Shown: piece by piece, positions 10,775 through 12,329 of the stretch | How positions within the stretch are numbered: position 1 is the stretch's first letter | Layout of the letters: each line of letters opens with the position of its first letter | From: Thermoplasmatota archaeon | Lineage (GTDB): Archaea > Thermoplasmatota > E2 > JACPAO01 > JAHFTW01 | Direction: 5' to 3' | Assembly (NCBI GenBank): GCA_041600695.1 | Contig: JBFIJP010000002.1 | Coordinates: forward strand, 1-40,650 | DNA length: 40,650 bases | Program-made: the position numbers and the translations under genes | The notes under the pieces: generated by a model | Database searches by the model: none | Told to the model about the DNA's origin: nothing | Seen by the model: only the letters and a program-made list of their open reading frames with translations

Positions 10775-10835
10775 GAGATAACAAGTCACTCGACCCGCCT
10801 CGCCTGCGGCGAGCGGGTCAGTTCGACCGTTCGGC
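10775..10835 (+). other. attC site 4
   Basis: GAGATAAC-AAGTC-ACTCGACCCGCCTCGCC-TGC-GGCGAGCGGGTCAGT-TCGACC-GTTCGGC. Confidence 0.85.
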
Positions 10836-10994
10836 GTCGGCCGAGTGGCCAAGTTCCCGCGCCGCCTTGCTTGTGGAATGGCCAGATTGAACCAGACACG
10901 GCGAGTCCGTCGGTGTCACCATGGAAGACGTGGCAGCCAAAACATGGTGCAATTTCGCTCAAGGGCCGAACAACCTACATCAAGCGTGAACGAC

Positions 10995-11003
10995 CTATAT
11001 ATT
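10995..11003 (+). promoter_or_regulatory. Candidate archaeal TATA box inside cassette 5, with an AGGAGG RBS at 11056-11061
   Basis: CTATATATT is the only AT-rich block upstream of the TIR-2TM gene. GCCTTAGGAGGCCCCTCAC precedes the TTG start at 11070. Confidence 0.35.
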
Positions 11004-11069
11004 GCCAACGCAATAACGGTCCTTGCGGATCGGCGCGCTACACGAAGCTCGCCTTAGGAGGCCCCTCAC

Positions 11070-11822
11070 TTGACGGACGTTTTCATCTCTAACGCCCACC
11101 CCGACGACGATTTCGCGCAACGACTAGGCGAAGCCCTGCAGGCTGCAGGGAAATCGGTTTGGCAAGCAAAAGGAGCGATTCGGCCTGGTGATATATGGCA
11201 GTCTACGATCTCCCAGGAGATCGCCAAAGCAAGAAACATAGTGGTCATAGTCTCGTCTCGCTCTGCCAGCAGTAATGCACAGAGGGCAGAAATTGCCTTG
11301 GCGTTGTCCCAAAACGATAAGCGCATCGTACCGGTTCGAATCGATCCCCGCGCGAAACTCCCACTATTGCTTCAGGGAATTCAAGCCATAGACTGGTCTG
11401 ACGAAGCGGGGCCGGGCCAAGCGCAGGAGGAGCTTCTCGCAGCGCTGACCGGTAAATCGGCTGCGGGCAGCCAGGAGGATACAGACTTCCGTCGAAGGCT
11501 CGTCGAAATCGAATCCGAGGCCCTGCGCTTTGAAAAAATATTGCTTGCGTCAGAAAGAAGAATGTTGAACTACCGTTTGCTTGTGACCACGTTCGGACTA
11601 GTGGTCGCATCCCTGGCCGTGCTCGCTGCAATGGGGGCCTTCAGCGCCTCCGCGATGGGGGACAACCTTCGTCCTTTTCTGATCTATCTGGTGGGTGCAA
11701 TAATGGGCGCATTGGCTGGTATTGGCCCTCTGGTTGCCCGGGCTTGGTTTGCTCGACGCCTAAACCGATTGACCGGCGAATCGTGTAAGTCCACAGGACT
11801 CCTGACGGAGGCGCGCAAATGA
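11070..11822 (+). CDS. TIR domain protein with C-terminal coiled segment and 2 TM helices (cassette 5, gene 1)
   Basis: DVFISNAHPDDDFAQRLGEALQAAGKSVWQAKGAIRPGDIWQSTISQEIAKARNIVVIVSSRSASSNAQRAEIALAL is a TIR pattern. The C-terminus has LLVTTFGLVVASLAVLAAMGAF and FLIYLVGAIMGALAGIGPLVA. Confidence 0.75.
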   Translation: MTDVFISNAHPDDDFAQRLGEALQAAGKSVWQAKGAIRPGDIWQSTISQEIAKARNIVVIVSSRSASSNAQRAEIALALSQNDKRIVPVRIDPRAKLPLLLQGIQAIDWSDEAGPGQAQEELLAALTGKSAAGSQEDTDFRRRLVEIESEALRFEKILLASERRMLNYRLLVTTFGLVVASLAVLAAMGAFSASAMGDNLRPFLIYLVGAIMGALAGIGPLVARAWFARRLNRLTGESCKSTGLLTEARK

Positions 11823-12196
11823 GTGGCGGGAACCAGGGCGCATCGGTTCTCCTAAGGCTCGAGGAGCGGCTTCGGCAGGAGCGCGAAACCTTTGAACAGC
11901 GAAAAGGCCAGGAGGCTAAGTGGTTCAATCTCCGCTTGCGAATGGGATATATGGCCGCGCTCATGCTGCCTGCCATTGGTGGAATCGCGGGATTCATCAT
12001 CATGAATGAGTCTCGTTTTTCGAGTAGCGTGGTTGCGGCCGCTGCTGCAGCACTCTTGATCGACATTTTGGGTCTCTTGGGTGCCGTCTGGAAAATTGTA
12101 TTGAACCCTACGGGTGCCACGCCTCTTGAACCAATCACGAGCCGAGGCCCGCACCCGCGTCACGCCGAAGACGTGAAACCACAATCCGACGACTGA
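11819..12196 (+). CDS. Small coiled-coil + 2TM membrane protein (cassette 5, gene 2)
   Basis: ATGA overlap with the upstream stop. LEERLRQERETFEQRKGQEAKW is followed by MGYMAALMLPAIGGIAGFIIM and VVAAAAAALLIDILGLLGAVW. Confidence 0.6.
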   Translation: MSGGNQGASVLLRLEERLRQERETFEQRKGQEAKWFNLRLRMGYMAALMLPAIGGIAGFIIMNESRFSSSVVAAAAAALLIDILGLLGAVWKIVLNPTGATPLEPITSRGPHPRHAEDVKPQSDD

Positions 12197-12268
12197 GCGC
12201 CGGTCCGCTGGGCCGTGGCACCGATGACCGCCTCGCCAATGCGGCCTCCAACTAGCGCAGCGAATCGC

Positions 12269-12329
12269 CGCCGAACAAAACACTCCAACCGACGCGCCTT
12301 CGGCGCGCGGTTGAGTTCGACCGTTAGGT
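12269..12329 (+). other. attC site 5
   Basis: CGCCGAAC-AAAAC-ACTCCAACCGACGCGCC-TTC-GGCGCGCGGTTGAGT-TCGACC-GTTAGGT. Confidence 0.85.

Follow-up and report, generated by a model that had tools for sequence, protein, structure and literature searches.

We analysed a stretch of DNA of 40,650 nt (hereafter, the window) from a contig assigned to a Thermoplasmatota archaeon (GenBank assembly GCA_041600695.1, contig JBFIJP010000002.1, positions 1 to 40,650 of the forward strand), with a focus on a two-gene element, cassette 5, which encodes a TIR protein and a small membrane protein. Cassette 5 occupies positions 10830–12323 (1494 nt) and is on the + strand, as are all of its features described below. 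Gene 1 (11070–11822) and gene 2 (11819–12196) are the only genes between its limits, and the homologous cassettes in Thalassotalea atypica (locus L001) and in locus L126 likewise contain this pair alone. An earlier note on this DNA, made from the sequence alone, had proposed the same coordinates for the cassette, and both ends proved to be the exact G|TT cut points of two adjacent attC-like sites; thus, the cassette had been correctly delimited. The upstream site (10771–10841) has the R' box GTTCGGC and the cut 10829|10830, and the downstream site (12266–12335) has the R' box GTTAGGT and the cut 12323|12324. They score 72 and 78 bits, respectively, with an attC covariance model for which both served as training members. 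Cassette 5 therefore has the hallmarks of an integron cassette, i.e., attC boundaries, R''/R' boxes and a bulged bottom-strand hairpin. Window positions 9973–12349, which include the whole cassette, recur with 100% identity in an independent public assembly (L127), and both genes are called alike there.

The cassette belongs to a + strand array of integron-like cassettes that extends over approximately 2.1–14.6 kb of the window. Seven co-oriented attC-like repeats were found in this array (2080–2196, 3671–3742, 7178–7252, 9951–10025, 10771–10841, 12266–12335 and 14494–14566). They have the form ..AAC AAG / imperfect palindrome / GTTRRRY, and their bottom strands fold into hairpins with single-base bulges. 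The first site (2080–2196) is atypical, being far longer than the other six. The G+C content is 0.57–0.62 in the array versus 0.65–0.72 in the flanks. No IntI was detected in the 40.6-kb window by tblastn with the IntI of T. atypica, and the scanned window open reading frames (ORFs) included no Phage_integrase match. Therefore, within the window the array resembles a cluster of attC sites lacking integron integrases (CALIN). The covariance model, which was built from the window sites and replaced a hairpin scan that proved too unspecific, recovers only its own training sites in the window and thus provides no independent evidence there. However, it also detects attC-like sites in L012, L025, L068 and L126, and those in L126, L012 and L068 lie beside homologous gene pairs.

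Gene 1 starts with TTG and codes for 250 residues. Its TIR domain (residues 1–127, 11070–11450) is followed by a long cytoplasmic helix (residues ~135–169), two transmembrane (TM) segments and a basic tail. The TM segments comprise residues 170–188 (11577–11633) and ~200–222 (11667–11735); Kyte-Doolittle hydropathy gave 170–188 and 204–222. The TIR_2 match is strong (E 3.2e-25; 89 bits vs a cutoff of 28; residues 4–114), and AlphaFold2 modeled residues 1–127 as a TIR fold, followed by helices 135–191 and 200–249. Foldseek matched the TIR domain to SPARTA (TIR-APAZ), SARM1, MyD88 and AbTir with E values of 3e-7 to 1e-5. In a PDB profile search, the candidate catalytic residue Glu74 (codon GAA, 11289–11291) was aligned with the 'W..E' glutamate of Cat1, TIR-STING, PdTIR and an AbTir-like TIR domain protein. 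Both the TIR fold and the conserved 'W..E' glutamate of NAD+-cleaving TIR enzymes are therefore present in gene 1. In addition, the candidate catalytic glutamate is retained in 42 of 44 unique TIR partners of gene 2 homologs, which argues for the TIR protein being an enzyme. Models of ThsB performed less well on gene 1: PADLOC ThsB gave 0.007 at best, compared with 6e-18 for PADLOC Aga_TIR, and Pfam ThsB_TIR gave 2.6e-5, far from the value for TIR_2.

Judged by its sequence, gene 1 is a TIR protein with a catalytic-type glutamate, predicted to be an enzyme that a C-terminal helix and a 2TM hairpin anchor in the membrane. SARM1, AbTir, SPARTA TIR-APAZ and Cat1 are the best structural or profile matches of its TIR domain, with the catalytic glutamate aligned, but none of them has a C-terminal 2TM hairpin anchor or a small 2TM partner. 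The C-terminal module of the TIR protein had no PDB relative by sequence or fold. With the cutoff set at 1e-5, a homology search with gene 1 retrieved nothing other than its own sequence, and a follow-up profile search recovered mostly one subfamily of 255 residues.

Gene 2 starts with ATG, overlaps gene 1 by ATGA (11819–11822) and codes for 125 residues, which form a long helix and a 2TM hairpin. Its TM segments, again from Kyte-Doolittle hydropathy, are residues 44–62 (11948–12004) and 71–89 (12029–12085). The AlphaFold2 model (pLDDT 83) is a hairpin of helices 5–62 and 69–95. Lysine and arginine counts (positive-inside rule) favor an N-in/C-in topology for the gene 1 and gene 2 proteins alike, and the cytoplasmic N-terminal part of gene 2 is only ~40 residues long. 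The earlier note had described a TIR protein with two TM segments, overlapped by ATGA with a 125-residue 2TM partner, and all of these features were confirmed; the parts that it called coiled appear as long predicted helices in the models of both proteins.

Gene 2 is a member of a real, unnamed family. A word-indexed search with it returned 72 clusters with 44–62% identity, and an exhaustive profile search expanded the family to 446 representative clusters (50% identity) at E ≤ 1e-3, all of which are currently annotated as 'hypothetical'. Two motifs stand out in the family alignment, ERLRQERETF (residues 16–25, 11864–11893) and WK.VL (residues 91–95). Residues E16, R19, Q20, E21, E23, T24 and F25 are invariant, and W35, F36, D82, W91, K92, V94, L95, L103 and P105 are nearly so; Asp82 (12062–12064) is a conserved intramembrane residue inside TM2. 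The family had no above-threshold match in Pfam, NCBIfam, PADLOC or PHROG. Scans with Pfam and PADLOC revealed no recognizable ligand-binding domain in gene 2, no PDB relative was found by sequence or fold, and a BFVD fold search gave nothing below E 0.5. Searches of GenBank phages, PLSDB plasmids and IMG/VR also gave no matches to the family. Together with the PHROG and BFVD results, this led us to reject a holin or phage origin of gene 2. One relative had a holin match at only E 0.04 (PHROG), and gene 2 of the window had none. Paralogy of the two hairpins was not detectable either (BLASTP E 9; hhalign probability 2.4%).

The earlier note had also likened the pair to modules in which TIR is fused to SLATT-like 2TM effectors. 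TM helix pairs with flanking cytoplasmic helices are indeed seen in gene 2 and in the C-terminal module of gene 1 (hydropathy and AlphaFold2). However, no Pfam SLATT model matched the window proteins even at E ≤ 10, and the 25 families that 60 gene 2 family members matched most often at E ≤ 1 included no SLATT family. Matches to NCBIfam SLATT_1 were below threshold and occurred in relatives only (15.9 bits for family member P0037 and 20.3 bits for the TIR C-terminal module of L016, with a cutoff of 41), and a SLATT_3 match of gene 1 (E 0.087) falls inside the TIR domain. With nothing above threshold in the Pfam or NCBIfam searches, SLATT membership was rejected, and the resemblance is therefore architectural only.

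To place the pair in a broader context, we surveyed 30 genome loci and 80 metagenome loci. The genome loci are spread over many phyla, including Spirochaetia, Gammaproteobacteria, Alphaproteobacteria, Deltaproteobacteria and Anaerolineae as well as Acidobacteriota, Actinomycetota, Bacteroidota, Verrucomicrobiota and Gemmatimonadota. Homologs of the two genes co-occur as overlapping ORFs in approximately 50 loci: among 115 related loci, a TIR protein of 208–288 residues is located directly upstream of gene 2 in 49 and also in L003. None of the outcomes that the earlier note had named as refuting its reading (no TIR profile match, failed TM predictions, no co-occurrence of homologs) was observed. 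Two TM segments follow residue 120 in 35 of 44 unique TIR partners (strict threshold), and 36 of 43 unique pairs have ORFs that overlap by 1–20 nt, most often by 4, 8 or 11 nt. When the search was started from the TIR side, a gene 2 homolog was found downstream in all three distinct contexts. The distance matrices of TIR and gene 2 are correlated (r=0.69, Mantel p ≤ 5e-4). Across phyla, the two genes are inherited together as one unit. An apparent fusion of the TIR-2TM protein with gene 2 (P0120, L129 1688–2923, 411 residues) was set aside as evidence, because a long-read contig of 2x coverage and a junk-like C-terminus indicate that it is probably an indel artifact and not a Rosetta-stone fusion.

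The pair is also a recurrent integron cassette. In T. atypica it is part of an array directly behind IntI and is flanked by attC, in L126 it is the third cassette after IntI, and in L123–125 it shares a long array with ccdAB. In L016, L019, L022 and L023, attC-like sites directly follow gene 2. It has been reported that toxin-antitoxin cassettes stabilize integron arrays (bioRxiv 10.1101/2024.07.02.601686). The presence of ccdAB in the same array, and the fact that no PADLOC system model covers the pair, would be consistent with a non-immune role, either as an addiction or stabilization module for the cassette array or as some other membrane pair in which TIR is an interaction scaffold. We consider such a role very unlikely. 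The catalytic glutamate is kept in nearly all TIR partners, gene 2 partners with Avs-like STAND-nuclease proteins (see below), and outside integrons the pair is repeatedly found among restriction-modification, RES, SIR2, NACHT, HerA-like or Mrr genes (L119, L122, L128, L003, L004 and L116–118). Another TIR protein is also among these defence-island neighbors.

TIR proteins are not the only partners of gene 2. In approximately 12 loci, gene 2 is preceded by a protein of ~1350 residues with helix-turn-helix (HTH), Mrr_cat, STAND NTPase and HEAT regions, whose gene ends 4 nt into gene 2. A MerR-like partner (217–241 residues) was found in ~8–9 loci, and in ~16–19 loci gene 2 stands alone and carries an additional beta domain (DnaJ-C11_C-like) at its C-terminus. 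Clustering of gene 2 sequences follows the partner type. The HTH-Mrr_cat-STAND-HEAT partners (L027, L029 and L034, at about 1950–5990, and L090, L098 and L115) come mostly from Alphaproteobacteria, and together with gene 2 they resemble an Avs-like system in which the small 2TM partner would be obligatory. The stand-alone proteins (P0037, P0042, P0050 and P0052; L008–L013, L047 and L050) have ~190–212 residues and are mostly from Anaerolineae.

These observations bear on the possibility that the pair functions in a Thoeris-like manner, with a membrane-anchored TIR protein that senses infection and makes a diffusible ADP-ribose (ADPR)-derived signal, e.g., an isomer of cyclic ADPR (cADPR). Oligomers of gene 2 would bind this signal, in pockets formed by their conserved Arg/Glu-rich N-terminal helices, and open a pore. 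Several validated Thoeris types are likewise organized as an operon of TIR and a small TM protein, the catalytic glutamate is conserved, and the invariant residues of the cytoplasmic helix (R19, Q20, E21, E23, T24 and F25) would suit a specific binding site. The weak SLATT_1 matches in relatives and a weak match to a CBASS 2TM effector point in the same direction. However, gene 2 has no recognizable ligand-binding domain, its N-terminal part in the cytoplasm amounts to only ~40 residues, no SLATT model reaches threshold, and the TIR domain of gene 1 scores far better on effector-type TIR models than on ThsB models. Moreover, relatives of gene 2 are equally coupled to HTH-Mrr-STAND and MerR-like partners without a known signal-making domain, which weakens the case for a receptor dedicated to a TIR-made nucleotide. 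None of six family peptides was present in the searchable part of the tables that accompany a recent description of Thoeris types (bioRxiv 10.64898/2025.12.03.692087). Thus, a Thoeris-like mechanism appears doubtful for this pair.

Among the known types, type VII Thoeris consists of a ThsB TIR and the SLATT effector ThsH and uses the canonical cADPR signal; ThsH and ThsF were modeled with positively charged inter-protomer pockets (bioRxiv 10.64898/2025.12.03.692087). Like cassette 5, it is a two-gene operon of TIR and a small membrane-spanning protein, and it presumably kills by disrupting the membrane. In the searchable part of that source, its TIRs are not described as membrane-anchored and the TIR domains of Table S1 are of other sequence types, whereas cassette 5 has a TIR_2-type TIR with its own helix-2TM anchor. 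In addition, gene 2 is below every SLATT threshold and also pairs with non-TIR partners. The gene order may differ as well: as far as Table S2 could be searched, the IMG gene ID of the TIR gene exceeds that of the effector gene for the two type VII systems validated in E. coli, whereas here the TIR gene is always upstream and the ORFs overlap. Type II (TIR and Macro-TM, with His-ADPR) and types V/X (TIR and a DUF2270 3TM protein or ion channel) also combine TIR with a membrane effector in abortive infection, but their effectors have a Macro ligand-binding domain or are larger multi-TM proteins, whereas gene 2 is a ~40-residue helix with a hairpin. The 2TM effectors of CBASS and Pycsar (PADLOC 'Effector 2TM' and PycTM) are likewise small N-in/C-in 2TM proteins that kill cells. 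However, the match to PDLC00710 was at chance level (E 0.012; 2 of 60 family members), and the cassette contains no cyclase.

The conservation of the two proteins is unequal. In pairwise comparisons, gene 2 sequences are on average 51% identical, and the corresponding averages are 30% for the TIR domain and 18% for the C-terminal helix-2TM module of the TIR protein, so the most conserved component of the pair is a tiny unnamed 2TM protein, and one that is common to STAND-nuclease systems. These values should be considered together with a further model, in which TIR is the sole killing effector, acting by NAD+ depletion, and gene 2 is a regulator. Gene 2 might then be a membrane sensor of a phage-induced change in the envelope or membrane potential, or an antitoxin-like inhibitor that, until displaced, keeps the TIR-2TM protein monomeric. 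The TIR domain does resemble the oligomerization-activated NADase effectors SPARTA, SARM1 and AbTir, the overlapping ORFs suggest a fixed stoichiometry, as in toxin-antitoxin pairs, and the location of gene 2 beside STAND proteins that have their own nuclease is easier to reconcile with a regulatory or sensing role than with that of a second effector. On the other hand, sensors of defence systems usually evolve fast, whereas gene 2 is the most conserved part (51% vs 18–30%). Its location downstream of the partner is unlike that of most type II antitoxins, and its occurrence alone with an added C-terminal domain would be odd for a pure inhibitor. This model is therefore unlikely.

The explanation we prefer, although only tentatively, is that the cassette is a self-contained two-gene module for anti-phage abortive infection at the inner membrane. 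The hairpins of gene 1 and gene 2, both N-in/C-in, would co-assemble into a hetero-oligomer in the membrane, whose cytoplasmic face would bear the TIR domains and the conserved charged helices of gene 2. Gene 2 might be the conserved membrane executioner or platform, because it is the slowest-evolving component, has a conserved Asp within the membrane and recurs in combination with other front ends (STAND-Mrr and MerR-like). Upon infection, the complex would rearrange or oligomerize, and the TIR domains would cluster, which is the usual way in which TIR NADases are switched on. The clustered domains would then cleave NAD+, the gene 2 oligomer would permeabilize or depolarize the membrane, and the infected cell would be halted before phage release. 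Activation in this scheme would occur by direct contact within the complex and not through a freely diffusing nucleotide.

Several observations weigh against such an abortive-infection complex. A physical interaction between the two proteins is suggested only by the overlapping ORFs, the matching architecture and the co-diversification, and the last of these is equally expected from simple co-inheritance. About half of the gene 2 family members are not located beside a TIR gene, and gene 2 is not necessarily an effector, given that the STAND partners have a nuclease effector of their own. Gene 2 does not significantly resemble known pore formers or holins, and its family has no detectable homology to the hairpin module of the TIR protein itself (hhalign 2.4%). 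Furthermore, an actinobacterial member (P0147) ends in three ChW repeats, which are usually extracellular, and this is awkward for a C-in topology.

A broader but rather improbable idea is that the gene 2 family is an unrecognized universal membrane executioner or adaptor, contacted directly by TIR, Avs-like STAND-nuclease or MerR-like front ends, and that the TIR-2TM protein senses a membrane event caused by the phage. If so, the event might be, for example, genome injection or depolarization, and the pair would be a membrane-resident TIR receptor complex, i.e., a functional analog of transmembrane TIR receptors and not of soluble Thoeris sensors.

Compact defence systems carried as integron cassettes have been described in the Vibrio cholerae superintegron. 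Epona is an Mrr_cat domain fused to a holin-like 2TM region, and Sucellos, which has a promoter of its own, consists of two proteins and includes a predicted pore (bioRxiv 10.1101/2024.07.02.601686). Cassette 5 is similar in this respect but has a TIR domain and a separately encoded conserved 2TM partner; the comparison is by description and not by sequence. TIR is nowhere mentioned in that study (bioRxiv 10.1101/2024.07.02.601686), and the literature searched, with supplementary tables that were searchable only in part, contained no description of the TIR-gene 2 pair. The combination of TIR with a membrane effector is a fast-growing theme in bacterial immunity, in which the effectors of the examples considered here have a recognizable ligand-binding or multi-TM domain, and none of these examples was described with a TIR anchor. 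The pair differs from known systems in that the TIR protein has its own helix-2TM anchor and that the partner, from an unnamed family, fails the SLATT test and also accompanies STAND-nuclease proteins. Should the pair prove to be a defence system, it would add a new effector or adaptor family of 446 clusters to annotate, offer a minimal 1.5-kb model for the coupling of TIR activity to the membrane, and extend the idea of 'integrons as defence biobanks' to GC-rich environmental bacteria and TIR chemistry. The natural limits of the cassette define a minimal functional unit for cloning.

The leader of cassette 5 (10830–11069) is unusually long, 240 nt, and includes the TATA-like motif CTATATATT (10995–11003) and a Shine-Dalgarno sequence, AGGAGG (11056–11061), 8 nt before the TTG start. 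The AT-rich octamer TATATATT (10996–11003), 67 nt before the gene 1 start codon, occurs once in the 40.6-kb window versus 0.03 expected. Gene 2 has its own Shine-Dalgarno sequence, GGAGG (11807–11811), within the 3' end of gene 1 and 7 nt before the ATG, and a GGAG-type motif is likewise present upstream of most homologous gene 2 starts. Based on the TATA-like and AGGAGG signals, the earlier note had suggested that the cassette may be expressed independently of an array promoter. Both signals are real, but a consensus scan of 10700–12700 found no sigma-70-type -35/-10 pair. In addition, only ~25 nt separate attC from the ATG in the homologous cassette of L126, which is close to IntI; thus, an own promoter is not a trait of this cassette family. 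For cassette 5 itself, an own promoter is possible.

Other parts of the array were also inspected. The first cassette (2224–3666) codes for a bSEFIR-type protein of 480 residues (PADLOC bSEFIR, E 3e-109; Pfam SEFIR and TIR_2) and adds a second defence gene of the TIR superfamily to the array. It is followed by one large cassette (3743–7245) with ORFs at 3779–5392 and 5468–7060 (537 and 530 residues), neither of which had a Pfam or PADLOC match, and with a GC-rich hairpin between them (~5395–5425); this cassette could be an uncharacterized two-gene system. The cassette at 7246–10018 contains a gene for a 386-residue protein (7411–8571) and then one for an EPSP-synthase/MurA-fold enzyme (8581–9837; Pfam EPSP_synthase, E 1e-71), an unusual cassette cargo. 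The next ORF, listed as 9856–10752, has a C-terminus that matches DUF4145 and, below threshold, HepT-like proteins. As listed, it crosses the attC site at 9951–10025, and its real start is therefore probably an ATG near 10100.

The cassette that follows cassette 5 (12629–13234) codes for a nucleotidyltransferase-like protein of 201 residues, and weak matches to AbiEii, DUF2204 and DUF6036 suggest that it may have a function of the abortive infection or toxin-antitoxin type. Beyond it, an IS110-family insertion sequence lies on the minus strand (13280–14566), with its transposase split into two ORFs, one with the DEDD domain (13963–14505) and one with Transposase_20 (13444–13932). This element is located between an attC-like left end, CTAACAAC (~13280), and the attC site at 14494–14566, and it has the appearance of an IS1111-attC-type element inserted at an attC site. 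Finally, two perfectly identical 113-nt direct repeats, 226 nt apart, are present at the start of the window (1–113 and 227–339) and could represent either a tandem duplication or an assembly artifact.

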